A DNA stretch of 34,419 nucleotides from Clostridiales bacterium. Lineage in GTDB: Bacteria; Bacillota; Clostridia; Christensenellales; Borkfalkiaceae. The notes beneath the pieces are model-generated. The model saw only the letters and a list, made by a program, of their open reading frames with translations. It made no database searches and had not been told where the DNA came from. Shown piece after piece: positions 5,649 to 34,419 of this stretch. Every line of letters starts with the position of its first letter. Positions within the stretch are counted from its first letter, which is position 1. Both the position numbers and the translations under genes were made by a program. The stretch covers positions 1 to 34,419 of the forward strand of contig SVIK01000001.1 of assembly GCA_015069525.1 (NCBI GenBank), given 5' to 3'.

Positions 5649-7142
5649 ATGAGATTAAAGAAGACGATTGCATTATGTTTGTCTATGTTGACGGCGTTTT
5701 CCTTTGTCGCTTGTGGCGTGAGTGAGGGTAAAAACGACGATAATTCGTCGCTTCAAGTGAATACGGGGAAAGCCTATGAAACAAGCGCAAACAACGACGT
5801 GGAGACGGGGAAGGCTCTTTCCACATCCGCGCGCTTGCGGAAAAAATACGGTTCTTATTGGACCCCGCAAACCGATTATAAAACGATGCCTATCGGCGCA
5901 TACAACGGTTTACCGCCGAGTGGTTCGCTTGGGTTTGATTATGATTACGAACAAGTATTAAGCGATTATAACGAGCTCGGCGTTAATTACTTGTTTGGCT
6001 TATATAATAGCGCAAACCAGAATCTTGAGCATGAAAAAACCACGTTATCGCTTTGTGATGAATATAATATATCCTATCTTTCCAAGTGGAACGCGTTGCA
6101 TTGGGAAACGGAAAGCAGTTTGCAAAATCAAAAGGCAATCTTGGAAGAGTTGACGAAATATGAAAGCTTTATGGGACCGATTATCGTTGACGAGCCTGGA
6201 AAAATGGCTTTCCAAGGTATGGCAACCGCCCGCGATGCGTTTGAGAAAGTGATTGGGGCAAACGCCAACGATTATTTGTATCACGTCAATCTTCTTCCCA
6301 ATTGGGCAGGGTGCGAGCCTTTGTACAATTTCCAAGCAAAAAATCCGGAAAGCGATTGGGACGTCTATAAAAATTATACCTATAATCAATATTTGACGGA
6401 TTATATGCAGATATACAATCCCCAAGTGCTCTCTTACGATTTCTATCCTATGGTGGGGGCGGAAAAGGAGCTCAAAGACGGGTATTTTGAAAATCTTTCC
6501 GTTATTCGTGAAAAGGCGTTGGAGGCGAATATTCCCTTCTGGACGTTTGTGCAAACGTGCGCGTGGGATTTTAATCAACGCTTGCCAAGCAAAGAAGAGT
6601 TGTTGTGGAACGTCAATACTTGTCTTGCTTACGGTGCGAAAGGGATAGAGTATTTTTGCGGTGTAGAGCCTTGGAATAGCACGAGTGCCGAACATTTCTC
6701 TGCTTCGCTTTTCTATAAAGACGGCAGTCACGTACCCGTTGTATACGATAGTGCGCTTCTTGCAAATAAGCAAATTCAAGCAATTGACGAAGTGTTGATG
6801 TGTTCTAAGAGTAAGGGTGTGATTTTCGTTGGCGATACTCCCGCGCTTTCAAACGGTACGAACAAGACGATGACGCCTTCTACGAGGGACGTGCTTAAAA
6901 GCTATAACGAATTGACTTCGGCGTCGGCGTTTCACGCGTTAATCGGTTGTTTCTATTACGAGGGAAAGACGGCGCTTTACGTTGTGAATAACTCGGTAAG
7001 CGAAGCGGATGCCGTGAATTTGCAATTTAATAAAGCTGTGCAAGGAACGTACACGCAAGGTGCAACGAAGAAGACTTTCTCGGGTGATACATTGCGATTG
7101 ACGTTGGAAGCGGGTGATGGAGTGCTCGTTGTGCTCGATTGA
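5649..7142 (+). CDS. Lipoprotein member of the uncharacterised TIM-barrel glycosidase-like family (paralog 2 of 4)
   Basis: RBS AGAGGGG. Signal peptide with lipobox FVAC (Cys22). Family blocks: IIVDEPG (DEP at nt 6189-6197), NLLPNW, LSYDFYPM, PFWTFVQT, AYGAKGIEYFCG, C-terminal LTLEAGDGVLVVLD. Confidence 0.8.
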   Translation: MRLKKTIALCLSMLTAFSFVACGVSEGKNDDNSSLQVNTGKAYETSANNDVETGKALSTSARLRKKYGSYWTPQTDYKTMPIGAYNGLPPSGSLGFDYDYEQVLSDYNELGVNYLFGLYNSANQNLEHEKTTLSLCDEYNISYLSKWNALHWETESSLQNQKAILEELTKYESFMGPIIVDEPGKMAFQGMATARDAFEKVIGANANDYLYHVNLLPNWAGCEPLYNFQAKNPESDWDVYKNYTYNQYLTDYMQIYNPQVLSYDFYPMVGAEKELKDGYFENLSVIREKALEANIPFWTFVQTCAWDFNQRLPSKEELLWNVNTCLAYGAKGIEYFCGVEPWNSTSAEHFSASLFYKDGSHVPVVYDSALLANKQIQAIDEVLMCSKSKGVIFVGDTPALSNGTNKTMTPSTRDVLKSYNELTSASAFHALIGCFYYEGKTALYVVNNSVSEADAVNLQFNKAVQGTYTQGATKKTFSGDTLRLTLEAGDGVLVVLD

Positions 7143-7255: not shown

Positions 7256-7261
7256 AAACGT

Positions 7262-15473: not shown

Positions 15474-15476
15474 ACG

Positions 15477-19200: not shown

Positions 19201-21021
19201 ATGTGGAAAAACGACGTATTTGCTTGTGTTGACGGAAAGATGACTTTCGACGGGTACATAAAGGAATTGGAGAAATATCTTGTTGAAAATCACGTGACCA
19301 AACAGAACGTATGGGAACTGTTCGTGAAGCAATTTCGCGATAAAACGGATACTGACTGGCGTTGGCGTGGGGAATATTGGGGCAAAGCAATGCGTGGCGC
19401 CGCGATGCTTTATAAAGCAACGAAGGACCCTGCTATTTATGACGCAATGAAAGCTACGATAGAAGATTTGCTTTCCACGCAAGAGGAAAACGGTAGAATT
19501 TCTACCTATCCCGTATCGCTCGAATTTAACGGCTGGGATATGTGGGCGAGAAAATATATTATTTTAGGCAACCTGTATTTCTACGAGGTTTGCGAAGACG
19601 AAGCGTTTAAGGAAAAATTATTAAACGCGCTTGTAAAGCACGCCGATTATATCGTGGCGCACGTAGGCGAAGGGGAAGGCAAGAAACCCATTTTGAAAAC
19701 TTCGGACGCTTGGGGTACGATGAATTCTTGCTCCAATTTAGAGCCGTTTGTAAAACTTTACAAAATTACGGGCAAACCCGAGTATCTTGAATTTGCCGAA
19801 TATATCGTCAGCACGGGGCTTTGCGACGGGGCAAACTTGATTGACCTTGCTTTAAAAGGTATACCGCCTCATAAATATCCGCATCCCAAGGCATACGAGA
19901 TGATGAGCTGTTTCCAAGGCTTATTGGAATTGTATACCGTCACGCGTGACGCAAAGCAATTGGAAGCGGTTGTAAAATTTGCCGATTTGGTATACGATAA
20001 CGAAGTGACGATTATCGGGACGGCGGGTTATGAAGGGGAAATGTTCAGCCACGGCGCGCCTGGGCAAACGGAATATTCCGAGAAAGAGGTATTGGAAACG
20101 TGTGTGACGGTCGTTTGGATGAACCTTTGCTTCCGCTTGTTGGAAATCACGGGTGACGCAAAGTATGCCGATTGGTTGGAATGCGCTTCCCTCAACGCTA
20201 TGAACGGTAGCGTAAATAACAAAGACCAACTTTCTATTCGTTCGGCAAACTGGGACCCTCGCTACGTGGATGCAAGCTTGCCTATGGAAGAATGGCCGAT
20301 GTACACGGGCAAACGCCAAATTTTGCCTTTCGATAGTTATAGCCCGCTTGTAAATGCAAATAGAGGACAATTGATTGCCGGTTTCAATATCATGGAAGAC
20401 GAGCAAATTTACGGTTGTTGCGCATGTATCGGTGTGGCAGGGCTTGCGATGGAAGAACTGTTTGCCGTTATGAAAACGAAGAATGGATACGCAGTAAACC
20501 TTTACGAAGACACGATTGTGGAAACGAGCGATTGTCGTTTGTCGATTGTACGTGATAAAAAGACGTTTGCCGTGAAGATTGCAGTAGAGAGCGAAAAGGA
20601 ACAGACGTTGAAGTTGCGCGTTCCCACGTGGACGGAGGGTTATCAAGTCTTTGTAGACGGCAACGAAGTTGCGGTGGAAGAAAAGGACGGGTATTTCAAG
20701 CTTGCCGTACAAAACAACGTGGTGGAAATTGCGTTCAATGCGGTTGTGAAAATGCTGAAATATCACGATAAAATTGCCTTCAAGAAAGGACCTTACGTGT
20801 TGGCTCGCGACCAAAAATTAGGCGAGGATATCACTACGCCCGTTTCCCTCGCGGAAAAACTGACGATTAAAGCGTATAAGAACGAGCTTTTCGACTGTGA
20901 TTACGCTTATAAATTGCAAACGGCAGACGGAGAGATTACCCTTTGCGATTACGCACACGTTGGTAAGGAATACGATAGTGAGGATTGCAATATCAGCGTT
21001 TGGCTTGAAAAGAAAATGTAA
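19201..21021 (+). CDS. DUF1680 / GH127-like glycoside hydrolase (beta-L-arabinofuranosidase-like), cytoplasmic
   Basis: WRGEYWGKAMRGAAMLY resembles the DUF1680 N-terminal block. E299-T-C301 (LETCVTV, nt 20095-20103) and C406-C407 (YGCCACIG, nt 20416-20421) mirror the Glu/Cys3 zinc site and Cys nucleophile of GH127 HypBA1, as I recall it. No signal peptide. Confidence 0.65.
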   Translation: MWKNDVFACVDGKMTFDGYIKELEKYLVENHVTKQNVWELFVKQFRDKTDTDWRWRGEYWGKAMRGAAMLYKATKDPAIYDAMKATIEDLLSTQEENGRISTYPVSLEFNGWDMWARKYIILGNLYFYEVCEDEAFKEKLLNALVKHADYIVAHVGEGEGKKPILKTSDAWGTMNSCSNLEPFVKLYKITGKPEYLEFAEYIVSTGLCDGANLIDLALKGIPPHKYPHPKAYEMMSCFQGLLELYTVTRDAKQLEAVVKFADLVYDNEVTIIGTAGYEGEMFSHGAPGQTEYSEKEVLETCVTVVWMNLCFRLLEITGDAKYADWLECASLNAMNGSVNNKDQLSIRSANWDPRYVDASLPMEEWPMYTGKRQILPFDSYSPLVNANRGQLIAGFNIMEDEQIYGCCACIGVAGLAMEELFAVMKTKNGYAVNLYEDTIVETSDCRLSIVRDKKTFAVKIAVESEKEQTLKLRVPTWTEGYQVFVDGNEVAVEEKDGYFKLAVQNNVVEIAFNAVVKMLKYHDKIAFKKGPYVLARDQKLGEDITTPVSLAEKLTIKAYKNELFDCDYAYKLQTADGEITLCDYAHVGKEYDSEDCNISVWLEKKM

Positions 21022-21172: not shown

Positions 21173-23206
21173 ATGGACTTTATTTGGCTCAAAGAAGAAG
21201 AAAATAATTCGTACGCGCAGTTCAAGGCGAATTTCGATTATAAAAAGGGAAACGTAAAATTATCCGTTTCCGCCGATTATAAGTATGAGGCATACGTTAA
21301 CGGCGTTTTGGTGAGTAATTGCCAATATGCCGATTTACCTACCTATAAGAGCGTAGATAGCGTAGATATTACCGCTTTTCTCCAAAAAGGAAATAACGAA
21401 TTGACGATAACGGCATTCCATATGGGAGAAGATTTCTCTTCTTGTCGTCCGCAGACGGCAGGGGTTGCTTTTAGCGTAGAAAACGAGGGAAAAACGCTTG
21501 TCAAATCGGGCGAAGATACGCTGTGTCGTAAGGCAAAAGGCTACCGCCCTGGCGGTATTATCACGGCGCAACTTGGCTACGGTTGGAATTACGATTGTAC
21601 GGACGAGGGGGGAGCTTGGGAAAAGGCACGTTTAACCAAGGCTGAAAATACGCTTGTGCCCCGTCCTATCCCCGCACTTGCGATTGGAGAACCGATGCCT
21701 GTCGTCGTTTGCGCACAAGGTATTTTTCAATACCGTGAAGGAAAAACGGCAGGGGAAAAGGCGCAAAACGCGTGGCTGTCCACTCTGCGTTTTGCGGGAA
21801 TGACGGGAAAAAATAAAATTACTTCCGCCGATTTGCATGTACCGGTGACGTTTAAGGCAAACGGTGGCGACGGCGTTTTCGTTATCGTCGATTTGCAAAA
21901 GGAAACGAGCGGTTATCCCGTGCTTTCCGTTACGGTAGATAAACCTTGTAAAGCAATCTTTGCTTGGGGCGAACATCTTGCCGACTTACGTATCCGTGCA
22001 GAGCGCGAAGGACGTAATTTTGCTTCGGAATACACGTTCAAGAAAGGGGAAAACGCTTTTGCGGGATATATTCACCGTTTAGGGTGCAGATACCTTTGTT
22101 TATTCGTGGAAAACGACGAGGTGACGATAAATACCTTGACGGTGCGTGAGGCTACGTATCCGTTTAAGATGCCGAAAAAGGATTTCGGGGATAGATTGCT
22201 CAACCGCATTTACGAGGTGGGGCGTAGAACGATGCAAATTTGTGCACACGAGCATTATGAGGATTGTCCTTGGCGGGAGCAAGCGCTTTACGGCATGGAC
22301 GCACGCAATCAAATGTTGTTTGGCTACGGTGCGTTTGAGGAATACACGTTGCCCCGTGCCGTGCTTCGTTTACAGGCGTATTCTACCCGAGAAGACGGTT
22401 TGCTTTCCCTTTGTGCACCTTCTCGCGCAAAAATTTGTATTCCTTCGTTCAGCTTGTATTGGGCGATTGCCGTATATGAAAACGCACAGGTGGATTACGA
22501 CGAGGCTTTCGTGAAAGAAATGCTTCCCTACGCTGATAAGATTCTAGAGAATTTTAAGCGTCGTACGACGGAAGCCGGCGTGACCTGCTTTAAGGAAAAA
22601 GACTATTGGAATTTCTATGAGTGGAGCGAGGGCTTGGACGGCGGTACTATCTTCCGTGAATACGAAATAGAGGAAACGACGGACTGTATTTTAACGACGC
22701 TTTCGTTTATGGCTTCGCGTGGCGTTGCAAAGCTGTATAAGCGTGTGGGAGATACGGCGCAAGCGGAAAAGTGGTTGCATTACGCGGAAAAAGTGCAAGG
22801 CACGATAGAGGCGTTTTACGATAAAGAAAAAGGCTTATACGCTTCGTTTATTAAGCAGGGAGAAAAGTACGGTTGGCATGCGCATACCCAAGCGATTGTA
22901 TTGCTTGCCGATATCCCCGAGGAGAGAAAGGATTCTCTTTGCGAGGTCTTAAAAAATCCCGATGGGAAAGTAGTGGATATGACGTTTGCCGCGTTGCAAT
23001 TTAAATACGACGCTATCGTTGCGTGCCAAGGGGATATAAATTGGTGCGTGGACGATATTTGTAAACTGTTTGGAGATATGCTTTTCCAAGGCGCAACCAG
23101 CTATTGGGAAACGGCTTTGGGTGAGGCGGATTTTGACGATGCGGGCAGTCTTTGTCACGGCTGGTCTGCCGTTGGTTGCTACGTTTTCGATAAATACCTG
23201 AAATAA
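21173..23206 (+). CDS. GH78-like alpha-L-rhamnosidase-related protein, cytoplasmic
   Basis: N-terminal rhamnosidase-N-like block (YKYEAYVNGVLVS...DITAFLQKGNNELTI). Six-hairpin domain block HYEDCPWREQALYGMDARNQ. C-terminal SLCHGWSAVG. No signal peptide. Confidence 0.6.
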   Translation: MDFIWLKEEENNSYAQFKANFDYKKGNVKLSVSADYKYEAYVNGVLVSNCQYADLPTYKSVDSVDITAFLQKGNNELTITAFHMGEDFSSCRPQTAGVAFSVENEGKTLVKSGEDTLCRKAKGYRPGGIITAQLGYGWNYDCTDEGGAWEKARLTKAENTLVPRPIPALAIGEPMPVVVCAQGIFQYREGKTAGEKAQNAWLSTLRFAGMTGKNKITSADLHVPVTFKANGGDGVFVIVDLQKETSGYPVLSVTVDKPCKAIFAWGEHLADLRIRAEREGRNFASEYTFKKGENAFAGYIHRLGCRYLCLFVENDEVTINTLTVREATYPFKMPKKDFGDRLLNRIYEVGRRTMQICAHEHYEDCPWREQALYGMDARNQMLFGYGAFEEYTLPRAVLRLQAYSTREDGLLSLCAPSRAKICIPSFSLYWAIAVYENAQVDYDEAFVKEMLPYADKILENFKRRTTEAGVTCFKEKDYWNFYEWSEGLDGGTIFREYEIEETTDCILTTLSFMASRGVAKLYKRVGDTAQAEKWLHYAEKVQGTIEAFYDKEKGLYASFIKQGEKYGWHAHTQAIVLLADIPEERKDSLCEVLKNPDGKVVDMTFAALQFKYDAIVACQGDINWCVDDICKLFGDMLFQGATSYWETALGEADFDDAGSLCHGWSAVGCYVFDKYLK

Positions 23207-23372: not shown

Positions 23373-24329
23373 ATGGAGAAAAAAACGAGAAACGAGAAGA
23401 AAATTTATGCATTAAAAACGAAAAGCATGCCTCGTGTCAGCTTTGCGGTAATTAGCCGTGAAACGCTTGAAAAGGTTGATAAAATAGAGGATAACGGTTT
23501 TGTTTGTGTTCGATACGTAGATACGGGAAAAATGGACGTCGCTTTTCAATACGGACCAAAATTTACCGTTAAAGCTGGCGAATATTGCATTTACCCGCGC
23601 AAAAGCAAATCGCAAACGGTAATACATAAAAATACGACGACGACGCTTTTTTCTTTCTTTATTGACGAGGGAGAGGATAAACTTATCAATTCTTCCGAGG
23701 TGTTGTTTGAAAAGTCGGATAACTATAAATACGTGGACATTGAAAGCTTATTCATTTTGCAAACGGGAAAAATCACGCCGTCTGACCGAGCTTATTCCGA
23801 ATTGAAGCAGTTGGTTCATCGATACGACGCAATTGGAGAATATACGAACGCGAACGTGTCTATGCACGCTTGGAATTTCTTGTTGTGGCTCGCCAACGCA
23901 CAAATAAACGATATAAAAGGGAATAAAGAGGAGAAAAAGAATAGCGTAGAAAAATATTGCGATAGAATTGACGAATATATCGAAAAGAATTATATGATGC
24001 CGATTACGATGACGACGATTGCCGATTTGCTTGTTTTGCATGAAAATTACATTAGTCGTATTTACAAGCAAACGCGCGGATTGACGGTGGTTGAACATTT
24101 GCGAAACGTACGTATCGAAAAGGCAAAAGAATTGTTGTTGCAAAACAAATATACGATTGCGCAAGTGGCAAAGGCAGTCGGCTTTTTAAACGTGAAATAT
24201 TTTATCGCCGTATTCAAAAAAGTGGAAAGTGTTTCCCCTGGGAAATATTATCGCAATCTTTTCGAACGTCGGTTGTATTCTTACGACAAACCTGAATATC
24301 TCGATTATTCAAACGACGAGATTTTGTAA
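23373..24329 (+). CDS. AraC-family transcriptional regulator
   Basis: C-terminal double HTH (ITMTTIADLLVLHENYISRIYKQ...IAQVAKAVGFLNVKYFIAVFKK...SPGKYYRN). N-terminal sensor-like domain. The start is uncertain because the RBS is weak. Confidence 0.85.
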   Translation: MEKKTRNEKKIYALKTKSMPRVSFAVISRETLEKVDKIEDNGFVCVRYVDTGKMDVAFQYGPKFTVKAGEYCIYPRKSKSQTVIHKNTTTTLFSFFIDEGEDKLINSSEVLFEKSDNYKYVDIESLFILQTGKITPSDRAYSELKQLVHRYDAIGEYTNANVSMHAWNFLLWLANAQINDIKGNKEEKKNSVEKYCDRIDEYIEKNYMMPITMTTIADLLVLHENYISRIYKQTRGLTVVEHLRNVRIEKAKELLLQNKYTIAQVAKAVGFLNVKYFIAVFKKVESVSPGKYYRNLFERRLYSYDKPEYLDYSNDEIL

Positions 24330-24513: not shown

Positions 24514-26001
24514 ATGGCAAGAAAGAAACGTATTATTTCCTGTGCATTAACGGGCGTACTTGCACTTTCGTCGGTAGGGGCGCTCGCTGGGTGCGACGCT
24601 TTGACGGGTGAAAACGTTATTTGGATAGCGTTTGCTGAAACTGGGTATGGCCGTGGATTCTTGGAACAATGGTGCAAAGATTTCCAAGAAAAATATCCCG
24701 AAGAGGAATACGTCTTTGAATTGGAAGGCGAGCCTGGCATGACGGGGGAAATTCAAACGCGTTTGACGACGGATAACGAAATTCCCGACTTGTTTTTCAG
24801 TTTGGATACGAACTGGCAAGAATGGGCGGCTCGTGGATATTTGTATCCGTTGGACGATATTTACCGCAAATCGAAAGCAGACGGAGATAAATCGGTTTGG
24901 GAATTCATGAACAAAGACTTGCGTGATTATGGTGTTGTAAATGGACACTACTACGCAATTCCTTGGACGGACGGTGCAAACGGTTTTATCTATAATAAGA
25001 CGTTGTTTGACGAAAACGGCTGGGAAGTTCCTGAAACGGTAGAGGAATTGTACGAGCTTTGCGATAAAATCAACAATCTTCCTTGCAATAAAGATGCCGA
25101 CAAAGAAAATAACATTGCCGTTTTCGCTTGGTCGGGTAAATATGCAAGCTATTGGGATTTCGTAGTGGAAAACTGGTGGGCGCAATACGAAGGTGCGGAC
25201 GAATTTAGAGATTTCTTTAACTTTGGAGCCCCGAAGAATGAAGACGGCACGTTCAAGTTTGAAAGCAATAATGCATCGCCTTCTGATTACGGTTCTCCTG
25301 AGGTGTATTTGCAAGAAGGTCGCGTAAAGGCGTTGGAAGTTTATAGAAACTTGGTTGTAAATGAAAACTCAACCTTCCCGAAAAACTCCATTTCTGGTGC
25401 GGTCGGTGCGGAATACACGGTTGCTCAGCTTGCGTTCATCAACGGAAAAGCGGCGATGATGCCTAACGGTGCATGGCTCGAACAAGAAATGGCGGAGGTT
25501 ATGCCTGACGATTTCGAAATGCGTTTGATGCGTACGCCGTATTTGGAAGAAGCGAAGAAAGATAAAGACGGTAATTATATTCCCATCAACGCGTCTTCCG
25601 CGGGGGACTTCTTCTGTATTCCCAAAAACGCTCCCAACTTGGAAGCGGCTTTGAAGTTCATGGAATACATCAACTCTCGCGAGGCGTGCGAAACGTTCAC
25701 CCGCGTGACCGGTGGTATTCGTCCTTTCCAATATATTGACGATTTGGATTTGGACAGCATGAATTTAAGTGAATTCTCTAAATCGTGCATCGAAGTATAT
25801 AGAGAAAGCACGACGGTATATCACTATTCCAGCAACCCGATTCAATGGGTGAGCACGTTTGGCAAATGGCCTGACCTTGGTAGCCCTTACGTAGGTATGA
25901 TTAGTGACCCTACGGAAAACACGCCGGCTGCGGTATGCTCGAAGAGTTGTGATTACGTGTATAGAGAATGGTGGAACTCCTACAATTTAGTTAACCAATA
26001 A
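24514..26001 (+). CDS. Carbohydrate ABC transporter substrate-binding lipoprotein
   Basis: RBS AAGGAG. Signal peptide with lipobox LAGC. About 495-aa family-1-type solute-binding protein, followed by permease genes. Confidence 0.85.
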   Translation: MARKKRIISCALTGVLALSSVGALAGCDALTGENVIWIAFAETGYGRGFLEQWCKDFQEKYPEEEYVFELEGEPGMTGEIQTRLTTDNEIPDLFFSLDTNWQEWAARGYLYPLDDIYRKSKADGDKSVWEFMNKDLRDYGVVNGHYYAIPWTDGANGFIYNKTLFDENGWEVPETVEELYELCDKINNLPCNKDADKENNIAVFAWSGKYASYWDFVVENWWAQYEGADEFRDFFNFGAPKNEDGTFKFESNNASPSDYGSPEVYLQEGRVKALEVYRNLVVNENSTFPKNSISGAVGAEYTVAQLAFINGKAAMMPNGAWLEQEMAEVMPDDFEMRLMRTPYLEEAKKDKDGNYIPINASSAGDFFCIPKNAPNLEAALKFMEYINSREACETFTRVTGGIRPFQYIDDLDLDSMNLSEFSKSCIEVYRESTTVYHYSSNPIQWVSTFGKWPDLGSPYVGMISDPTENTPAAVCSKSCDYVYREWWNSYNLVNQ

Positions 26002-26016: not shown

Positions 26017-27291
26017 ATGAAAGAAAGCGTAAAAAATAAACGCCAAACCCGCGTACATATAGGGGGGTGGGTCTCTCCCAAACCTGCCCAAGAAGTGGGT
26101 GGCGAAGATTTTTGCACGGTTGCGCAATATAAATTAATGAAAGAAAGCGGTATCCGTACGGCGTACGCTATTTACGAACGTAGTGCTGTGGACGTCGACG
26201 GGAAAAACGCAAACGAACGTGCGTTGGCTTGTGCCGAAAAAGCGGGAATGCAGTTTTACGTATGGGACACAAAAGTTCGCGACCTTATGCTTGAAGGTGA
26301 TGAAACCGCTGTCAAGGAGTATTTAAAGAAATACACCAAATTTAAATCGTTCAAAGGCGTTTTGATGAAGGACGAGCCAACGAAAGAGGATTTGGTATGG
26401 TGCAAAAAAATCGTAGACGTGTGGGATAAGTATTTGCCCGACAAAGATTGTTTTATGAATCTTTTTCCCGAGCACGTGCTAAAAGAAGATTGTAAACTTG
26501 CTCAAGACGATACGTTTGAAGACGATTACCTTAATGCGTTTATGGCAATGAACGTTAAACGACTTTCGTACGATTTATATCCTTTGATGTACGACGATGA
26601 CGGTAAGCCTACGATTCAAAAACATTATCTTCATAATTTAGAGCTTTGCGCAGAGGTAGCGAAGAAGAAGGGAGTACCCCTTTGGACGTTTATTCAATCC
26701 ATGAGTTTTACTCGTTGGCATCGTCGTCCGGATGAATCGGCTTTGCGTTGGCAAATTATGAGTGGTTTTGCATACGGGGTAAAGGGGATACAGCATTTCT
26801 GCTATTGGCCCCCGACGGAAGACAAATTATTGACGGTGAACGATGCGTTCTTAAACCCGCAAGGCGAACCGACGGATATCTATTTCACGGCGCAAAAGAT
26901 ACATAAAGAGATTGAAACGTTTGAAAAAGAATTCGTGACCTATGATTATGAAGGCGTTATGCCGATTTTAGGAGATGGGGCGAAGGAAAACGCTTTTTAT
27001 GAAACGTTGAACTGTCCTTTGAAGAGCCATGCGCTTATCCGTTCCGTTTCTGCAACGCAAGATACGCTTTTAGGTGTTTTAAAAAACGAAAAAGGCAAGA
27101 ATGCCTTCTTCCTTGCGAACTTTGCCGACCCTATTTTACAGCTTTCTAGCGAAGTAAAGCTTTGCTTAAACGGGGTGGAAAAAATTAAAGTTTCGCAAAA
27201 CGGAAAAACCCGCCGTATAAAAGCAAAAGACGGAATGTTTACTTTCGTTCTTGGCGCAGGCGACGGCGCGTTTATCCAAATCATCAAGTAA
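26017..27291 (+). CDS. Uncharacterised TIM-barrel glycosidase-like protein without signal peptide (paralog 3 of 4)
   Basis: Start set at ATG 26017 (AAGAGAG upstream); the listed ORF begins at TTG 26011. Family blocks: LMKDEPT (DEP at nt 26371-26379), NLFP, LSYDLYPL, PLWTFIQS, AYGVKGIQHFCYWP, C-terminal LGAGDGAFIQIIK. Confidence 0.8.
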   Translation: MKESVKNKRQTRVHIGGWVSPKPAQEVGGEDFCTVAQYKLMKESGIRTAYAIYERSAVDVDGKNANERALACAEKAGMQFYVWDTKVRDLMLEGDETAVKEYLKKYTKFKSFKGVLMKDEPTKEDLVWCKKIVDVWDKYLPDKDCFMNLFPEHVLKEDCKLAQDDTFEDDYLNAFMAMNVKRLSYDLYPLMYDDDGKPTIQKHYLHNLELCAEVAKKKGVPLWTFIQSMSFTRWHRRPDESALRWQIMSGFAYGVKGIQHFCYWPPTEDKLLTVNDAFLNPQGEPTDIYFTAQKIHKEIETFEKEFVTYDYEGVMPILGDGAKENAFYETLNCPLKSHALIRSVSATQDTLLGVLKNEKGKNAFFLANFADPILQLSSEVKLCLNGVEKIKVSQNGKTRRIKAKDGMFTFVLGAGDGAFIQIIK

Positions 27292-27371
27292 ATTTATACG
27301 GCAAAGCCGTTTGTCCTTGGAGAGGGACGAAAAAAACTACTACGAATATTACGTTATAGGAGTTTTTGTCT

Positions 27372-28400
27372 ATGGAAAACAAGAAAATGCAGTCCGACAA
27401 ACCGGTTGGTGGCAATATTGAAGTAGATTACAAGGACTTGAAACCCTTTTTGTACGAAGAGGATAAGGTAGATTATCAACCAGTTATCCCCAAAAAGAAG
27501 AGGATGGCAACGTCGAAGAAAATTTTCATTATCACGATGTTGGCATATCCCATTTTGCACTTCCTTATCTTTTGGGTATACATTAACTTTAATACGATTC
27601 TTAAATCGTTCCAAGGTTTTTCGTATAAAACTGGCGACGAAGTTTTTGTAGGCATGAAGAATTACATAAACTTCTTTAAAGCATTTAGCTCGGAATCGGG
27701 GCAATTAAAACACGCAGTAGTCAATTCATTGCTATTCTTCGTGTTTAACAACTTTGTATTATTGCCGGTATCCATGATATTTGCTTACCTGCTTTTCAAG
27801 AAAGTGTTTATGGAAAAAGTTTTCCGTATCATATATTTCTTGCCGAATATTATCTCGGTTGTTGTATTGACGATGGTATTCAAGTTCATGTTCGATAATG
27901 AATTTGGCCCGCTGTTCAGTATAATGGAAAAGATAGGGTTGAAAATGCCTGAGAACGGCTTCTTTGGGACGGAAGGCACGGCGATGATTATGATATTCGT
28001 CTACTGTTTGTGGGCAGGTATCGGCTATAACGTACTTTTGCTTTCTGGTACGATAGCAAGAATCCCGACGGAAGTATTGGAAGCTGGTAAAATTGACGGC
28101 ATCGGGATGGTAAGAGAGTTCGTTCAAATCGTAGTTCCTCTTATTTTCTCGACGGTATCCACGTTGTTCGTGACGGGCTCCATGGTCATGTTCACACTCT
28201 TCTTGCAACCAATGTTGTTGACGAAGGGTGGACCGGATAACTCCACGTATACGCTGGCATATTACATTGTAGAACAAGTTAACAACAACCGTTTGTACGA
28301 CGCAGCGGCGGCAGGTATTATTTGTAGCGTTGTAGGTATTCCTATTATCCAAGGTATCAAGTCGATAATGGAAAAACTTACGCCCGACGTAGAATTCTAA
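27372..28400 (+). CDS. Carbohydrate ABC transporter permease (MalF/LplB-like)
   Basis: ATG 27372 lies 9 nt after AGGAG (27358-27362); the listed ORF starts at TTG 27366. Multi-TM protein with EAA loop LEAGKIDGIGMVREFVQIVVPLI. Confidence 0.85.
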   Translation: MENKKMQSDKPVGGNIEVDYKDLKPFLYEEDKVDYQPVIPKKKRMATSKKIFIITMLAYPILHFLIFWVYINFNTILKSFQGFSYKTGDEVFVGMKNYINFFKAFSSESGQLKHAVVNSLLFFVFNNFVLLPVSMIFAYLLFKKVFMEKVFRIIYFLPNIISVVVLTMVFKFMFDNEFGPLFSIMEKIGLKMPENGFFGTEGTAMIMIFVYCLWAGIGYNVLLLSGTIARIPTEVLEAGKIDGIGMVREFVQIVVPLIFSTVSTLFVTGSMVMFTLFLQPMLLTKGGPDNSTYTLAYYIVEQVNNNRLYDAAAAGIICSVVGIPIIQGIKSIMEKLTPDVEF

Positions 28401-28470: not shown

Positions 28471-31400
28471 ATGAGAAAAAGCTTTATGAAAAAGTTATTT
28501 GCCACGTTGGCGGTTGCAACTTTTGCAACCGTCGGCGCAGGCGTTGCGTTTACAAATAACACGAAAGAAGCCTCAGCGGATACGGGCGTAATTTCTACGG
28601 ATTTTTCGTCTGCGACTTTGCCTACTGGCTTATCGATTACGAATTCAAGCGCTATTGTGGCTGAAAATGGGGAGCTTAAATTTAATACAGGCATTATATC
28701 AGGCGCGTCTATTGTGACGACGCAACAATACACAAACTTTGTGTTGGAATACGATTTAAACTTTACCTCTGGTGAATGGGCTCCCATTGTTTACTTTGGT
28801 AATGGCACAAGCACTGTGCATACTGAAAGTGCGTTTATTTATGTAAATGCATGGGGTGCGGTTGCAAATAGATATAACAATGCGGACAATACGATGTTTG
28901 CTGCGTTTCTTCCTGGTTCAATTAATCCGTATGCCTCTGGGGCTAAAACGCACGTGAAAGTGACGGTTCAAGCAGGGGCGGTCACGCTTACGTTGAAAGA
29001 CCTTGCGACTAATGCGGTTTATGAAAATCAAGTAGCGACTGGAATTAACAAGACAGGTGTCGTAGGTGTTCCTTCTTCGGGAAATGCGGTGTTTTCGATT
29101 GATAACCTTTCCATAACCAATTTAGATACGGCTCAAACAGTTCCTACGCCTCCTGCAACGACGGTGAAAGGTACTTCGTTGAATAATTGTGATTATTTAG
29201 GCGGTTGGTATGGTACCAATGGCACGTGCGCGCTTGATACAGAAATAAAATCGCAAGGTACAGGGTCCTTAAAGCATACGTTATCGGCAGGCAATTATTT
29301 TATCGTAATGGTAAGAGATTATTCTAATGGTGACGCAGAGTTAACGTTAGAACAGCTTTTGGCATACGACGGATTGTATTTTGAAGTATATAACCCTGGT
29401 TCTGCGGTAGATTTAAAATTCTTTAACTCCTCTACTGTTGCAACGACGTTGCAAACGGGGTGGAATCAAGTGACGATTTCTAAGGCGAATATTCAATCGG
29501 CAATTGACGCTAATGCAGAGCAATTTGTTGGAGGCGAATTCCGCTTTACTATCGGTGGCGACGCGACAATCTATCTTGACAACGTAATGGGTATCACGCC
29601 AGCTTCGTCAGGCGGGGATAGTGGTTCTACTGATAATTGGACGTTGGACACCTCTGTTTGGTCGATAACGCATACGAATGCTATTACGCAAACGACGGGA
29701 GCGCTCTCGTTTGTGACGGGCGCTGATGCTGTTACGTACGATGGCGCGGCGATTGTGACAAACTCGTCTTATACCAATTTCCAATTGGAATTTGACATGT
29801 CGGCTACCGCGTCTGGTGGTTGGCTTCCCATTGCATTTTTCGGCGCAACGGAAAGCAACATGTATTATCATAACAACTTCTTGCACATTAACGATTGGGG
29901 CGCTCTTAAGCAACTCAACATTTCAGCTGATACTGCAGACATTGTTGACTTGAACACGAGTAACGTTAGCCCGTATACCAACCGTATTCCTAATGGCGAG
30001 CAAATTCATGTAAAGCTTGTTGTAAATAACGGAAACGTCGTATTGACGCTCACGAAAGGGACGGGGACATTCTCAAAAACGTTGTATACAGGAATTAATG
30101 TGACGGGTAAAGTAGGTATTCCTGCTACGATTAATTCCAATTTCAATATTTCTAACGTGACGATTACCGATTTGGGTGAATCCGGTGGCGAGGGCGGCGG
30201 AACGACGCCGGAAACGCCCGTAGGGGAAGGCTCGACGGCGTATACGAAATTTGACGGCGCAGTTGATTCTAATTGGGCGATAACGGGCGGCACGCGTGTA
30301 AGCGTTTCCAACGGGCAACTTGTATATGCAAACAATACGGCAACGGGTGACGGCATTTATACGACGGGTAAATACACCAACTTTATTTTGGAGTATGATA
30401 TCACGCCTACCCTTATCAATCAACCTGTGGAGGACCCTCAGACTGGTTGGATTCCCGTAATTATGTTCAGCGTAGGCGATAATGCCAATATTGGTGGCGC
30501 TAACAATTTCGTCTATATGAACCAATACGGTGCAATCGTAGGGCTTAATCCTAGTGGACAAAATATCTTTACACCAGCATTAGTGGGTTCACCACATTCT
30601 GCAATTGTTAATACAACGACGCACGTTAGGGTAGAAGCGCAAGACGGTACCGTGACGGCATATTTTAAGAGAGGTAGTCAAGAGACTTCGTTTGTAATTG
30701 GCAATGGCCTTAATACGACGGGTAGAGTTGGTATTCCCGTATCGGCGGAAACTGGCTTGATTATCGATAACCTTGTAATCGTCAATTCTGACGAATATGC
30801 AGATTATCAAGTAAATAAAATCACGTTGGCAAACGATGGCCCGCAAGCAAACGCAAACGAAACGCTTACAGGCAACCTGTTGGATGAAATTAAGAGAAAA
30901 GCACAAGCAGACGGTATTGATATTACCAATAAGTCGTTTGTGTTCCGTTCTAAGACAGACGGATTCTTCCTTGATTCCAAAACGGGTGAGTGGGAATATA
31001 CGGTTGGACCTTACAACGGTTTGAAGGAACTTGAATACGTTATTACCGTTAATGACCTTGTGCTTGACGGATGGGTATATCCGCTCGGCAATAGAGGTAT
31101 GTATACGATTGAAGGAAATATTGCGGTCACCATCATTGGTGGCATGGACGACCCTAACGAAGGTGGTGAAGGTGGTGGCGCTGGCGACACGAGCGAACTT
31201 CCTGTTATTGTTGGGGATAACGTTGTAGAACACGTTCAAGGTAAAGTGCAAGACGTATCTTTCATTATCGATACGAAATCTTATAAAATTACCCGTATAA
31301 CGTATAACACGGAAAACGTTAAGGTTGCTGCTTATACTTTGGAAGAAGTAGAGGAAGGCATTAAGTTGACGTTCAAAGGCGACTTCGTGGCGCTTTTGGA

Positions 31401-32676
31401 AAAAATAGGCGATAACGAATTTAAAATTGAAACGATTAAAGGTTTTGTGGATGCTATTATTCGGGTAAAAGTTTTGGAAACGCCCGAAATCATCGATGGA
31501 AATTCCGCGGAAATGTGGAAGAATTATGAAACGGACGCTGTGTTTAATCTTAACACGTTTGAATTGCCGATTCTTTCCATCCTCCGTACAGGTGCGTCCT
31601 CGGCGCTCAATAGCGATGCATACACGTATGCAGACGGCGTTTTAACGATTAAAAAGGAATATCTTGCAACGTTGGATGCAAGTGACGACGCTTACCGTTT
31701 CAGTATTTATACGGACGGTGGTAGCGTATCCGTAAACGTGACGATTAAATTTGCCGAAGAACCTTACGTAGACCCTGAATCAGCAGAGTTCACGCTTGGT
31801 AGCGAAAACGACGTTGAATTCGAGTTGGATACGATGGGGGCGCCTATTGTGCAAATCGTTCGTGATAACGAAGAAAAGGCGCTTGGTGATAACGCTTATG
31901 CTTTCGATGCAGACGCAATGTCGTTGACGTTTAAAAAGGAATATCTTGCGGCACTTGGCGCTGGTGAATACGAATTCACGATTACGACGCCTGGTGGGGA
32001 TGCAGTTGTGACGATTACGGTACTTCCTGGCGACGGACCTACGTGTACCGACAACAAAAAGAACGCAACGTTTGGTGAAAATGCGAATGTTTCGTTTACC
32101 GTTAACACCAACGGCCAAGCGATTGTGGCTATTCAAAGAACGGGTGCTACGTATGGGCTTGGCGAGGATGCATATACCTATGAAAACGGCACGTTGACGA
32201 TTGTTGGCGACTACGTTGCATTGCTTCCTTTGGGAGAAAACGAATTCACGTTGGAAACGGCAAACGGCTCTATTAAATTCTACATTAACGTAGTAGAAGA
32301 AACGCCCGAAAATCCTGACAATCCTGACAATCCTGATAATCCCGAAGACCCCGAAGACGGTGAATACGAAGGCGGGGAATACGAGGAAGATAATAAGGAT
32401 AACCCCTTCGAGGAAGACATTACGAATCCCGATGAAGGAGAAGAACCTATTGACCCCGAAGAACCTGATGACGGAGGAAATAGCGGTAGCGGTTCGTATG
32501 AAGACGAATTCACCGGTTCTGTTAAACCTAGTGAAGATTCCTACAATAAATATCTTGAAGGACTCGAAAACGGTGGTCAAGTATCCGGCGGTTGCAACGG
32601 TTCCCTTTCTATGGTAGCAGGTTTGCCCGTAGTGGGAATTATCGCTTGGTTGATTCGGAAAAAGAAAGAGGACTAA
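28471..32676 (+). CDS. 1401-aa modular cell-surface protein: signal peptide, three ConA/DUF1080-like lectin modules, a CBM-like module, four X2-like Ig modules, an acidic stalk and a C-terminal membrane anchor
   Basis: RBS AAGGAG. Signal peptide aa 1-36 (..KEASA|DTG). Lectin-like modules at aa 37-218, 389-568 and 588-772 share YTNF.LE(Y/F)D, GW.P(I/V), F.(Y/H)(V/I/M)N..GA, H(V)(K/R)V, TG.VG(V/I)P and DNL/SNV.I. CBM-like module at aa 231-375. X2-like repeats at aa 911-1002, 1005-1094, 1100-1185 and 1192-1275. Asp/Glu/Pro-rich stalk at aa 1276-1350. C-terminus GGCNGSLSMVAGLPVVGIIAWLIRKKKED. Confidence 0.85.
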   Translation: MRKSFMKKLFATLAVATFATVGAGVAFTNNTKEASADTGVISTDFSSATLPTGLSITNSSAIVAENGELKFNTGIISGASIVTTQQYTNFVLEYDLNFTSGEWAPIVYFGNGTSTVHTESAFIYVNAWGAVANRYNNADNTMFAAFLPGSINPYASGAKTHVKVTVQAGAVTLTLKDLATNAVYENQVATGINKTGVVGVPSSGNAVFSIDNLSITNLDTAQTVPTPPATTVKGTSLNNCDYLGGWYGTNGTCALDTEIKSQGTGSLKHTLSAGNYFIVMVRDYSNGDAELTLEQLLAYDGLYFEVYNPGSAVDLKFFNSSTVATTLQTGWNQVTISKANIQSAIDANAEQFVGGEFRFTIGGDATIYLDNVMGITPASSGGDSGSTDNWTLDTSVWSITHTNAITQTTGALSFVTGADAVTYDGAAIVTNSSYTNFQLEFDMSATASGGWLPIAFFGATESNMYYHNNFLHINDWGALKQLNISADTADIVDLNTSNVSPYTNRIPNGEQIHVKLVVNNGNVVLTLTKGTGTFSKTLYTGINVTGKVGIPATINSNFNISNVTITDLGESGGEGGGTTPETPVGEGSTAYTKFDGAVDSNWAITGGTRVSVSNGQLVYANNTATGDGIYTTGKYTNFILEYDITPTLINQPVEDPQTGWIPVIMFSVGDNANIGGANNFVYMNQYGAIVGLNPSGQNIFTPALVGSPHSAIVNTTTHVRVEAQDGTVTAYFKRGSQETSFVIGNGLNTTGRVGIPVSAETGLIIDNLVIVNSDEYADYQVNKITLANDGPQANANETLTGNLLDEIKRKAQADGIDITNKSFVFRSKTDGFFLDSKTGEWEYTVGPYNGLKELEYVITVNDLVLDGWVYPLGNRGMYTIEGNIAVTIIGGMDDPNEGGEGGGAGDTSELPVIVGDNVVEHVQGKVQDVSFIIDTKSYKITRITYNTENVKVAAYTLEEVEEGIKLTFKGDFVALLEKIGDNEFKIETIKGFVDAIIRVKVLETPEIIDGNSAEMWKNYETDAVFNLNTFELPILSILRTGASSALNSDAYTYADGVLTIKKEYLATLDASDDAYRFSIYTDGGSVSVNVTIKFAEEPYVDPESAEFTLGSENDVEFELDTMGAPIVQIVRDNEEKALGDNAYAFDADAMSLTFKKEYLAALGAGEYEFTITTPGGDAVVTITVLPGDGPTCTDNKKNATFGENANVSFTVNTNGQAIVAIQRTGATYGLGEDAYTYENGTLTIVGDYVALLPLGENEFTLETANGSIKFYINVVEETPENPDNPDNPDNPEDPEDGEYEGGEYEEDNKDNPFEEDITNPDEGEEPIDPEEPDDGGNSGSGSYEDEFTGSVKPSEDSYNKYLEGLENGGQVSGGCNGSLSMVAGLPVVGIIAWLIRKKKED
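31201..32295 (+). repeat. Four tandem ~85-92-aa X2-like (Ig-fold) protein repeats inside the surface-protein gene
   Basis: nt 31201-31476, 31483-31752, 31768-32025, 32044-32295. Shared pattern: DV.F.L.T.G..I..I.R.G...L..DAYTY..G.LTI.K.YLA.L..GE.EF.I.T..G.....I.V. The divergence is at protein level only; these are not DNA-identical repeats. Confidence 0.7.
32311..32355 (+). repeat. Five in-frame 9-bp tandem units (NPD NPD NPD NPE DPE)
   Basis: AATCCTGAC, AATCCTGAC, AATCCTGAT, AATCCCGAA, GACCCCGAA, followed by a 15-bp duplication GGTGAATACGAAGGC / GGGGAATACGAGGAA (32359-32388). Confidence 0.85.
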
Positions 32677-32740: not shown

Positions 32741-33586
32741 ATGAATAAGTCAAAAACGGAAAAAATTGTGCTTTGGATAACGTTCGTTATCTTTGCATTA
32801 TATGCTATCAGCTTGTTGTATCCCGTTTTTTGGTTGATAACAAACTCATTAAAGCAAACTAAGGAATTCGGTGCGGACCCGTTCGGATTCCCTAAGAGTT
32901 TCTATATGAAGAACTATGTGGACGCCTTTTCCCTTACGGTTGGCAGAACGAAGATACTCGGTATGTTTGTAAACAGCGTTATTCTCGTTGTTGGTTGTAC
33001 GCTTGTTAGCGTCTTCGTTCCTGCAATCACGGGCTACGTTGTTGCTAAGTTTGAATTCCCTGGGCGTAAGCTTTTGTACGGCGTTGCAATTTCTTCCATG
33101 TTGATTCCCGCCGTTGGTACGTTGACGGCAACCTATCAATTGATGGTAGACTTGCGTCTTTATAACAGCTACATAGGTATTATCATTATGTCAAGTGGCG
33201 GTTTCGGCTTCAACTTCGTTATGGTGTACGGTTTCTTTAAGAGCATTTCCAAAACGTATGCAGAAGCGGCGATGTTGGACGGTGCGGGGGAATACAAAAT
33301 CTTCTTTAAGGTTATGTTGCCTCAGGTCAAGCCTTCGTTGATTGCAATTGGTATTATTGCCGCAATCAACTATTGGAACGACTATTTCACGCCGTATATG
33401 TACTTGCGTCAACATCCTACGATTGCCGTTGGTTTGCAAAAGATTGTAGACAAAGTACAAGCGAACAACACGTGGCCTCAATTGTTCGCAATCATGTTGA
33501 TTTCAATTTTACCTCCCGTGGCGATTTTCATTGCGTTCCAAAAGACGATTATGGAAAACACCGTTGCTGGTGGTTTGAAAGGCTAA
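32741..33586 (+). CDS. Carbohydrate ABC transporter permease (MalG/LplC-like)
   Basis: RBS AAGGAG. Six TM segments. EAA loop AEAAMLDGAGEYKIFFKVMLPQVKPSL. Confidence 0.88.
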   Translation: MNKSKTEKIVLWITFVIFALYAISLLYPVFWLITNSLKQTKEFGADPFGFPKSFYMKNYVDAFSLTVGRTKILGMFVNSVILVVGCTLVSVFVPAITGYVVAKFEFPGRKLLYGVAISSMLIPAVGTLTATYQLMVDLRLYNSYIGIIIMSSGGFGFNFVMVYGFFKSISKTYAEAAMLDGAGEYKIFFKVMLPQVKPSLIAIGIIAAINYWNDYFTPYMYLRQHPTIAVGLQKIVDKVQANNTWPQLFAIMLISILPPVAIFIAFQKTIMENTVAGGLKG

Positions 33587-33606: not shown

Positions 33607-34419
33607 ATGAAAGAGCAAAAAAATTCGGCGTGGTACGCGCGTATTAACAAGAAAAAAATCGGCGCATTGCTTTTATCGGCATGCATGCTTGGCTCCTTCG
33701 TGGGTTGTTCTACCGGTTCTAATACGGAATCGCTTAACAGCACTTCCAACCCTTTCTATCAAGGAGCAGGGGAAACGAACGGCTCGTTAGGCGATTACGA
33801 AAATGGTAATCCCGTTGGCGGTTCTTCCTCCTCTGGCGGGAACGTGAGCGATTATGAAACGGAAGACGTGGTAAGCGGTACGACTACGGATAAGACGACG
33901 GAGGATTTTGAAACGGAAACGCCCAACATGGGGGACACCACGACTTCTACGGGCAAATGGGAAGACTACGTTGGCGACGAGGACGAAAGCGTATACTTGC
34001 AAACCAAGCTTAACGACGACCCGTATAGAACGCAAGGCGGTTATTCGTATTTCTACCACTATCAACACGGTCCTACGACGATGCCCATTTCGGCATGGTC
34101 GCCTCCGCCTCCCAATTTTGGTGACTTTACGACCAACCAAATCACGCTCGCTAACTATCAAAAGATGGCAGATGCAGGGTTTAATACGGCTTACGGTCTT
34201 TACGAAGTTTTAAGAGGTGTTGTTGACGTAGATAAACGGAACGTCACGAACGCATTGACGTATGCAGACCAAGTGGGTATGGTTTATTATGTAAAAGACA
34301 GCTCCGCTCTCGGTAATTTGTCGGATAACGGTTCTGTTGCTTTGGATAACTATTACAGTTGGTACATGAATCGAAAGGCATACGGCGGTACGTTGACGGA
34401 AGACGAACCTGGCATGGAG
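33607..34419 (+). CDS. Lipoprotein member of the uncharacterised TIM-barrel glycosidase-like family (paralog 4 of 4), 3' end cut by the window edge
   Basis: Not in the supplied ORF track because it has no stop. ATG 33607 lies 8 nt after AAGGAG (33593-33598) and the frame is open for 271 codons to 34419. Signal peptide with lipobox FVGC. About 110 aa of Ser/Thr/Gly/Glu/Asp-rich linker. Then family blocks MPISAWSPPPP, YQKMADAGFNTAYGLYE, ALTYADQVGMVYYVKD, LTEDEPG (DEP at 34402-34410). Confidence 0.8.
   Translation, partial: MKEQKNSAWYARINKKKIGALLLSACMLGSFVGCSTGSNTESLNSTSNPFYQGAGETNGSLGDYENGNPVGGSSSSGGNVSDYETEDVVSGTTTDKTTEDFETETPNMGDTTTSTGKWEDYVGDEDESVYLQTKLNDDPYRTQGGYSYFYHYQHGPTTMPISAWSPPPPNFGDFTTNQITLANYQKMADAGFNTAYGLYEVLRGVVDVDKRNVTNALTYADQVGMVYYVKDSSALGNLSDNGSVALDNYYSWYMNRKAYGGTLTEDEPGME

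Follow-up and report, generated by a model that had tools for sequence, protein, structure and literature searches.

How a protein with the barrel of a family 42 glycoside hydrolase (GH42) might cleave a glycosidic bond when the residue aligned to the catalytic nucleophile is hydrophobic is the question raised by a gene on contig SVIK01000001.1 of a Clostridiales bacterium (GCA_015069525.1), from which a stretch of 34,419 nt, referred to here as the window, was analysed. The target gene (26017..27291, + strand) follows a solute-binding protein (SBP) gene and precedes permease gene 1 of an ATP-binding cassette (ABC) transporter operon, and it encodes a GH42-related barrel followed by a beta-sandwich, in a predicted cytoplasmic protein of 424 aa that lacks a signal peptide. 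This protein and its three paralogs in the window are members of a large family, unnamed as judged by the Pfam, NCBIfam and PDB searches and the literature, whose proteins are probable glycosidases of GH42 (clan GH-A) descent and which is a candidate for a new GH family. The reading tentatively favoured for its chemistry, given slightly less than an even chance, is that of a glycosidase without an enzyme nucleophile, in which catalysis would be assisted by the C2 substituent of the substrate.

The homology of the four open reading frames (ORFs), as claimed in an earlier note on this DNA, is far beyond chance, with blastp E values for the target of 5e-32 against the copy at 1376, 3e-19 against the copy at 5649 and 7e-11 against the fragment at 33607 (database size 1e8), while the last fragment, which was outside the training alignment, scores 5.9e-29 on the hidden Markov model of the family. 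The paralog at 1376..2680 (+) is a predicted cytoplasmic protein of 434 aa which keeps DEP, N and D.Y and carries L-L at residues 226/227 (EFKVFLL, target numbering); the paralog at 5649..7142 (+) is a predicted lipoprotein of 497 aa (lipobox FVAC) which keeps the same residues with V-Q at 226/227; and the paralog at 33607..34419 (+), 271 aa up to the window end, where it is cut just after DEP, is a predicted lipoprotein (lipobox FVGC) whose linker is long and of low complexity. Lipoprotein signals were observed in the copies at 5649 and 33607, and none in those at 1376 and 26017. The ORF of the target starts mechanically at TTG 26011, and ATG 26017, preceded by AAAGAGAG, is the likelier start. 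All of the blocks quoted in the earlier note were recovered, including LAADEPH, IIVDEPG, LMKDEPT and LTEDEPG, NLLP/NLFP, LSYDxY(P/A), PLWTFIQS/PFWTFVQT and EFKVFLLTL in the 1376 copy. The AYG..G...F.YW block is likewise present but degenerate in the copy at 5649 (FCGVEPW), and the C-terminal module is an all-beta sandwich with the G.G.(F/L) ending as described, although it spans about 115 aa (residues 309-422) rather than the proposed 80 or so.

The AlphaFold2 model of the target, built on an 18-sequence alignment, consists of a (beta/alpha)8 barrel and a C-terminal all-beta domain, with a predicted local distance difference test score (pLDDT) of 91.5 and a predicted template-modelling score (pTM) of 0.92. 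In this model, the barrel comprises residues 14-306 (26056..26934, +), with its strands at residues 14-18 (beta-1), 48-50 (beta-2), 79-82 (beta-3), 112-119 (beta-4), 144-149 (beta-5), 183-185 (beta-6), 222-227 (beta-7) and 257-261 (beta-8), and the beta-sandwich is encoded at 26941..27282 (+). The top Foldseek matches in the PDB are all glycosidases with a triosephosphate isomerase (TIM) barrel, at 9-14% identity and template-modelling (TM) scores of 0.4-0.57; the leading group comprises PslG (GH39, E = 1e-11), BT_0435 (4h41), the GH164 beta-mannosidase, GH42 and GH35 beta-galactosidases, the GH140 apiosidase and some GH13 amylases. The predicted fold class is thus clear, yet no close relative is present among the solved structures. 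The barrel plus beta-sandwich that the earlier note had read from the sequence is borne out by the model and by these matches, the nearest of which are clan GH-A-type glycosidases.

Conservation at the barrel mouth was assessed, in target numbering, for three sets, comprising 79 diverse members, 106 genomic copies from 70 loci and 173 representatives from many phyla. D119, E120, P121, N148, D186, Y188 and G254 are never substituted among the 79 members; D119, E120, P121, N148, D186, Y188 and F261 are never substituted among the 106 copies, where G254 has one exception; and the 173 representatives display D119 in 172/172, E120 in 172/172, D186 in 173/173, G254 in 173/173 and Y188 in 171/173. 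The D119-E120-P121 motif (26371..26379, +), at the end of beta-4, is the putative counterpart of the N-E motif of GH42 and clan GH-A and is aligned to ISNE of GH42, and its conservation, which the earlier note had named as a point to check, withstood all three sets. N148 of the NLFP block (26458..26460, +) lies at the end of beta-5 (79/79, 104/104 and 167/173), and D186-L-Y188 (26572..26580, +) follows beta-6. I226 (26692..26694, +), at the end of beta-7, is aligned to the nucleophile Glu of GH42 and is non-acidic throughout the family: the 173 representatives have 99 Ile, 35 Leu, 26 Val, 5 Ala, 4 Met, 2 Phe, 1 Thr and 1 Gly at this position, the 106 copies have 70 Ile, 18 Ala, 9 Val, 3 Leu, 2 Ser, one other residue and three gaps, with neither Asp nor Glu in these two sets, and Ile, Val or Leu occupies it in 74/79 members, with no acidic residue among those listed. 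No conserved Asp or Glu was detected on beta-7, beta-8 or the following loops in the 79 and 173 homologs, so that the absence of a nucleophile candidate proposed from four sequences extends to the family. D119, E120 and D186 are the only never-substituted carboxylates. All invariant residues fall at the C-terminal ends of the modelled barrel strands, which is the canonical active site of TIM barrels.

Other positions of the barrel vary between subfamilies. Q227 is common (140/173) and not essential, E54 and D84 differ between subfamilies, and three subfamilies follow genomic context, namely D84/I226/Q227/W245 in the ABC operons of Firmicutes, K/R84 in polysaccharide utilisation loci (PULs) with SusC/SusD and GH78 genes, and C84/A226/L227/L245 beside genes for GFO/IDH/MocA oxidoreductases and URO-D-like proteins. 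The copy at 1376, whose beta-7 diverges with L-L at 226/227, retains the full invariant set, and the L227 state is seen across a whole subfamily and not just in this copy, which suggests that it is probably an active enzyme with another specificity and not a pseudo-enzyme.

GH42 is the only family to which a sequence link, a weak one, was detected. Searched against the PDB, the 79-member profile gave matches below E = 0.1 only to GH42 beta-galactosidases (5e9a, 1.2e-3; 5xb7, 4e-3; 4uoq, 3e-2; 4uni, 4e-2), and the alignment places lsyDyYp on ISWDSYP, gipfwvFiqt on GKPFVLMEST and AYGakgiqyF on AHGADSVQYF, with the family Ile (F-I-Q-T) opposite the nucleophile Glu of GH42 (L-M-E-S). The vlvkDE segment was placed on GWHISNE by a HMMER fragment below threshold (score -3.3). 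The resemblance of the SYDxYP and PFW blocks to GH42, pointed out in the earlier note, shows in this profile as a motif-for-motif alignment. Weak matches to Pfam Glyco_hydro_42 were found in 38/79 relatives, the best at 2.2e-10, and some long members (L075:7947-10865, L029:11697-14204, L022:9198-11960 and L019:12863-15001) exceed the Pfam cutoff of 21 with 23-28.6 bits, covering only model positions 233-376 of 376 and lacking the nucleophile; automatic pipelines would likely mislabel these as beta-galactosidases. A match to PF02449, let alone a full-length one, was found neither for the target nor for its three paralogs even at E <= 1, and no match to Glyco_hydro_42M or 42C was detected; in the model the barrel runs straight into the beta-sandwich, and the trimerisation domain B is absent.

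The roles of the conserved residues can be read, with the caution due to an alignment, from the GH42 enzyme BiBga42A, in which Asn159 of the N-E pair and Asp285 form hydrogen bonds to O2 of the galactose in subsite -1, Asp285 and Tyr287 touch the anomeric position, the Y287F mutation cuts kcat 80-170-fold, and Glu160 serves as acid/base and Glu318 as nucleophile (PMC10688820). In the alignment, Asn159 corresponds to D119, Glu160 to E120, Asp285 to D186, Tyr287 to Y188 and Glu318 to I226. Two carboxylates would thus flank the C2 substituent of the sugar, with both acid/base and Tyr kept and a hydrophobic nucleophile site. In GH20 (PMC10570127), as in GH123 and its new relatives (PMC11087588), the catalytic signature is an adjacent Asp-Glu pair combined with the lack of a protein nucleophile, and the same features are found here, with D119 and E120 adjacent and never substituted at the barrel mouth and no acidic residue on beta-7. 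Since the GH42-type nucleophile is lost in all members, the mechanism probably differs from that of GH42, and assistance by the C2 substituent is favoured because in GH42 structures O2 is contacted by the counterparts of D119 and D186, while the Y188 counterpart is found at the anomeric centre. In the alignment, D119 takes the place of the O2-binding Asn, and Ile, Val, Leu or Ala that of the beta-7 nucleophile Glu. In the proposed mechanism, E120, the putative general acid/base, would protonate the leaving group while the C2 substituent of the substrate itself would attack C1, with D119 and D186 on either side to hold and polarise it and Y188 to steer it. The most likely substituent would be a 2-acetamido group, which would yield an oxazoline, the type of intermediate of GH20, GH84 and GH123, and less likely a 2-hydroxyl group, which would yield a 1,2-anhydro sugar of the GH99 type. 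Water would then be activated by E120, so that the anomeric configuration would be retained. The predicted arrangement fits the needs of neighbouring-group participation, as it would provide an Asp for the 2-acetamido N-H, a Tyr for the carbonyl oxygen, a Glu as acid/base and a hydrophobic floor for the acetamido methyl.

Several observations weigh against substrate assistance. The DE-to-NE alignment on beta-4 is the sub-threshold fragment mentioned above, and it is backed only by the topology of the strands and by similarity in the flanks; that D119, E120, D186 and Y188 cluster is deduced from homology with GH42; and D186, which ordinary GH42 enzymes conserve as well, by itself constitutes no new feature. 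Neither in sequence, by Pfam, nor in architecture, by the model, was homology with GH20 or GH123 detected, and H-x-G-G, an N-terminal beta-sandwich and DUF4091 are missing. In addition, nagA and nagB, which belong to N-acetylglucosamine catabolism, are not enriched among 105 pooled neighbours, and the partner that recurs is the GH78 rhamnosidase.

Four further enzymatic explanations, as well as a loss of catalysis, were weighed against the same residues and contexts. An inverting single-displacement hydrolase, with E120 as the acid and D186 (or D119) as the base acting on a water in the space of the lost nucleophile, appears unlikely. It draws on a GH42 nucleophile mutant in which a water occupies the position of the Glu318 carboxylate, hydrogen-bonded to Asp285, the equivalent of D186 (PMC10688820), on the invariance of D186 and on the small residue (Ala or Ser) at position 226 in one subfamily. 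The bulky Ile, Leu or Val at that position in most members would however fill the cavity, the conservation of D186 is matched in retaining GH42 enzymes, where this residue binds O2, and the invariant change from Asn to Asp at 119 would be left unexplained. More doubtful still is an eliminase (lyase) acting on 3-keto glycosides supplied by a partner GFO/IDH/MocA oxidoreductase dependent on nicotinamide adenine dinucleotide (NAD), in which D119 or D186 would take H2 and E120 would protonate the leaving group in an elimination through the conjugate base (E1cB). Two carboxylates would indeed adjoin C2, GFO/IDH/MocA genes occur in 11/75 loci, some of them flanking the family gene (L049, L066 and L072; also L053), and xylose-isomerase-like TIM-barrel and 3-keto-disaccharide-hydrolase domains recur among the neighbours, the latter also in the secreted protein X of the window. 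Most loci, the window included, nevertheless have no adjacent oxidoreductase, and surface lipoproteins, or proteins anchored through SLH, type IX secretion system (T9SS) or dockerin modules, are numerous among the members, with no adjacent oxidoreductase in the Firmicute loci to serve the surface copies. The known eliminases of the 3-keto pathway are xylose-isomerase-like and are not known to include GH42-like ones.

An ordinary retaining GH42-type glycosidase whose nucleophile has merely been misaligned is very improbable. The long members above the Pfam GH42 cutoff would favour it, but their matches are confined to the C-terminal part of the model, D119, E120 and D186 are the only fixed carboxylates, no Asp or Glu is conserved on beta-7, beta-8 or the loops after them, and domain B is absent. 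GH112 enzymes combine a GH42-like barrel with phosphate in place of the enzyme nucleophile, and a glycoside phosphorylase by analogy with them would suit a GH42-like barrel without a nucleophile, the cytoplasmic location of the target and of the 1376 copy, and the position of the target inside an ABC importer operon. This explanation is extremely unlikely all the same, given that 114/173 members have a signal peptide or lipobox and others carry SLH, T9SS or dockerin modules, so that a cytoplasmic location does not hold for the family; that the four paralogs and 79 relatives have no Pfam match to GH112 domains; and that there is no invariant Arg, His or Lys which could bind phosphate, R236 being present in only 54/79. 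A non-catalytic glycan binder derived from an inactivated GH42-like enzyme, which the earlier note had kept as an alternative, would account for the lost canonical nucleophile and for the linkage to transporter genes. It is now scarcely tenable in view of the invariant barrel-mouth residues and the context: the former active-site D, E, N, D and Y are conserved across phyla and paralogs, two copies are cytoplasmic, the operons already hold a dedicated SBP or SusD, and several PULs have GH78 and this family as their sole recognisable enzyme candidates. The fusions to SLH, T9SS, cohesin, dockerin and concanavalin A-like (ConA-like) modules, the several copies per locus, the ABC sugar operons and the SusC/SusD PULs likewise point to an enzyme.

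Compared with known families, the proteins share with GH42 (clan GH-A, PF02449) the (beta/alpha)8 barrel, the beta-4 Glu, S-[WY]-D-x-Y-P after beta-6, P-F-x-x-[FM]-x on beta-7, A-x-G-A-x-x-[IV]-Q-Y-F on beta-8 as well as a beta-sandwich at the C-terminus, whereas they differ in having D-E for N-E, Ile, Val, Leu or Ala for the nucleophile Glu, no domain B, a length of about 420 aa against about 700, an identity below 15% and a TM score of about 0.5. The features of clan GH-A are present in part, with the fold and the beta-4 Glu found and the beta-7 nucleophile absent, and membership in GH42 proper was rejected on the missing nucleophile, the other architecture and the lack of a Pfam match for the target. 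With GH20 and GH123 the family has in common the Asp-Glu pair at the barrel mouth, the absence of a protein nucleophile and a conserved Tyr, but it has no detectable homology to them, DE is preceded by GVLMK and not by H-x-G-G, and beta-1 begins at residue 14; no GH20- or GH123-type enzyme was present among the 50 best Foldseek matches listed. GH123 and its relatives, and GH185/DUF4838, were rejected as home families for their other architecture and lack of homology. GH99 endo-alpha-mannosidases have a (beta/alpha)8 barrel and no protein nucleophile, and their neighbouring 2-hydroxyl group forms a 1,2-anhydro sugar; no homology to GH99 was detected, and the likeness would be an analogy of mechanism only. 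PslG and the GH140 apiosidase BT_1012 share the barrel with a C-terminal beta-sandwich in about 420-450 aa and gave the best Foldseek scores (E = 1e-11; TM 0.52-0.57), though at 9-12% identity and with no sequence-level relationship. Both are classical two-carboxylate enzymes, and GH164 uses the classical Glu pair as well. GH167, comprising 'GH42-like' exo-carrageenases from carrageenan loci and assigned to clan GH-A, and GH164, the 'GH42_dist' beta-mannosidase of Helbert et al. that is among the Foldseek matches, are both families that were split from the periphery of GH42. GH167 was rejected for retaining the classical Glu pair of the active site (E295/E472 in BovGH167) within four domains and about 780 aa, and GH164 as it has about 650 aa and a TM score to the family of only about 0.5.

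The earlier note could not place the four proteins in a named family: Pfam and NCBIfam gave no match for the four paralogs even at E <= 1, a PDB sequence search with a four-sequence profile gave none, NCBIfam gave none for the 79 relatives, and no confident match in Pfam, NCBIfam or the PDB to an existing GH family with its catalytic residues elsewhere was found. The description in that note as a four-copy family does not hold, as an exhaustive HMMER search yielded 5,977 clusters (50% identity) at E <= 1e-3, 4,516 at E <= 1e-10 and 1,587 at E <= 1e-30; the same search overturned the impression of a rare family given by a word-index homolog search, which had returned 14-17 relatives. The members named in their sources are all called 'hypothetical protein', and no characterised member was found in the literature on nucleophile-lacking GH42-like families, on new GH families of 2023-2026 or on DUF4434/BT_0435. 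In a scan of GTDB species representatives with the 18-sequence alignment as query, 515 relatives were confirmed, and the best 75 loci were analysed. These come from gut Clostridia, Paenibacillus, Cohnella, Izemoplasma, Haloplasma, Kribbella, Rubrobacter, Calditrichota and Latescibacterota, as well as from Bacteroidota such as Paludibacter, Mariniphaga, Pedobacter, Sphingobacterium and Chitinophagaceae; Candidatus Scatosoma is the closest of them, with 72-74% identity and the gene order of the window. Clustering of their ORFs gave 114 family members in 70 loci, often several copies per locus. A signal peptide or a lipobox / hydrophobic N-terminus occurs in about two-thirds of the 173 representatives (114/173), and long members are fused to SLH, T9SS sorting, cohesin/dockerin, Laminin_G_3 (ConA-like), Big_2 or Fib_succ_major modules.

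Differential gene contexts were observed among the 75 loci. ABC permeases neighbour the family in 34 loci, solute-binding proteins in 30, AraC regulators in 19, SusC/SusD in 15/10, GFO/IDH/MocA proteins in 11, Big_2 proteins in 10 and ROK regulators in 7; GH78 alpha-L-rhamnosidases occur in 13 loci, with 5 more loci having the GH78-like type of the window itself, and GDSL and SASA carbohydrate esterases and DUF4838 proteins also recur. No dominant catabolic pathway emerged from a pooled Pfam scan of the 105 neighbours. With family copies denoted FAM, the layout in Firmicutes, Izemoplasma and Haloplasma is FAM-SBP-perm-X-perm-FAM(-FAM), compared with SBP-FAM-perm-X-perm-FAM in the window; that in Paenibacillus is ROK-perm-FAM-SBP-perm-GDSL-FAM(700 aa); and that in Bacteroidota is SusC-SusD-GH78-FAM-FAM-GH78-FAM-FAM, in which only GH78 and the family are recognisable as enzyme candidates. 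Such PULs, with SusC/SusD, only GH78 and two to four family copies, were observed in L029, L031, L032 and L046 (Paludibacter) and in L024 and L030 (Pseudopedobacter, Sphingobacterium). Since these PULs hold only GH78 and family copies, a simple rhamnose-containing target glycan is implied, and rhamnose would be the co-target most consistent with the contexts. In other Bacteroidota loci (L049, L072, L058, L066 and L054), the distinct subfamily of about 400 aa with C84, A/S226, L227 and L245 is flanked, unlike the copies in the Firmicute operons, by genes for GFO/IDH/MocA oxidoreductases, for a URO-D-like protein and for one of 984 aa that weakly matches CBM11. Taken together, the context fits secreted and cytoplasmic glycan-degrading enzymes, not lectins or phosphorylases.

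In the window, the operon lies next to GH127-like and GH78-like genes, as the earlier note had described. A GH127-like six-hairpin glycosidase (19201..21021, +), distantly related to solved beta-L-arabinofuranosidases, and a GH78 alpha-L-rhamnosidase homolog (21173..23206, +; RhaB, 2okx, E = 1e-36) are followed by an AraC-family regulator upstream of the operon (23373..24329, +), the sugar ABC SBP (24514..26001, +), the target, permease 1 (27366..28400, +), protein X (28471..32676, +) and permease 2 (32741..33586, +). The nearest solved relative of the SBP, 9h0n, which binds fucosylated lacto-N-biose, was rejected as a guide to the ligand for being too distant for a transfer of specificity. 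Protein X is a secreted protein of 1401 aa with CBM_X2 and DUF1080/ConA-like, 3-keto-disaccharide-hydrolase-like domains. In this arrangement, the lipoprotein copies would trim an extracellular glycan containing deoxyhexose (rhamnose), the oligosaccharides would be taken up by the ABC transporter encoded alongside, and breakdown would be completed by the copies in the cytoplasm (26017 and 1376) with the GH78 and GH127-like enzymes.

The unusual position of a protein X between two permease genes recurs in Clostridia, Izemoplasma and Haloplasma, which makes X a conserved partner of the family, with counterparts at L002:10460-16183, L005:11675-14161, L006:11614-13917, L053:5989-8556, L007:11442-12680 and L014:6934-8292. 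The X proteins (clusters c12, c18, c22, c25 and c37) are mostly without a Pfam match and weakly related among themselves, with mutual blastp E values of 1e-4 to 1e-11, and may represent a second uncharacterised family that partners the GH42-like one. Clusters c12, c18, c25 and c37 were also compared with the GH42-like family itself and are not distant members of it.

The family may be, at a probability approaching but not reaching one half, the first glycosidase family descended from clan GH-A/GH42 without an enzyme nucleophile, working by participation of the C2 substituent (oxazoline or 1,2-anhydro) or by E1cB-type elimination, and the principal enzyme of a glycan-utilisation system that is widespread. 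If so, several thousand sequence clusters now called hypothetical, or at risk of a GH42 beta-galactosidase label, would form a new glycoside hydrolase family, and they would offer a natural case of a two-carboxylate barrel turned into a nucleophile-free enzyme, in which a switch of mechanism inside a single fold would be recorded by the paired changes, Asn to Asp on beta-4 and Glu to Ile on beta-7. Such a case would bear on the evolution of substrate-assisted mechanisms and on enzyme engineering, where scaffolds for the synthesis of glycosidic bonds are drawn from nucleophile-free glycosidases. It would also open up a conserved multi-copy glycan-utilisation system of gut Clostridia, soil Paenibacillus and Bacteroidota PULs, repeatedly paired with GH78. 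In Firmicutes this system would be an ABC operon in which the gene of a secreted ConA-like protein is embedded, and in Bacteroidota it would be the SusC/SusD PULs with only GH78 and the family.

The remainder of the window holds genes of other kinds. The start of a division and cell-wall cluster (mraZ, mraW, an FtsL/DivIC-like gene and a penicillin-binding protein transpeptidase gene) is located at 14985-19023, and the glycan genes begin at 19201. In such clusters, mur and ftsW genes usually come next; here the transpeptidase gene is directly followed by the GH127-like and GH78 genes, with no mur or ftsW gene there. A protein with Schlafen/AlbA_2 and HATPase_c_4 domains (4022-5551, +), apparently unrelated to glycan use, sits between two of the paralogs. 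Directly 3' of the paralog at 5649 are two ORFs without a Pfam match, 7139-7570 (143 aa, +) and 7570-8286 (238 aa, +), one of which overlaps and the other abuts, and a homolog of the 238-aa protein is encoded in the Candidatus Scatosoma locus L001 (cluster c39). An SBP ORF (8330-9787, -) and the permease ORF upstream of it (9694-10500, -) overlap by 94 nt as called, and the real start of this SBP is probably at a downstream codon. An ABC ATPase (11336-12856, -) with ABC_tran and TOBE_2 domains is 506 aa long, which exceeds the typical length of MalK/MsmX-type ATPases by well over 100 aa, and it has homologs of similar length in three family loci and a shorter match in a fourth (c16).

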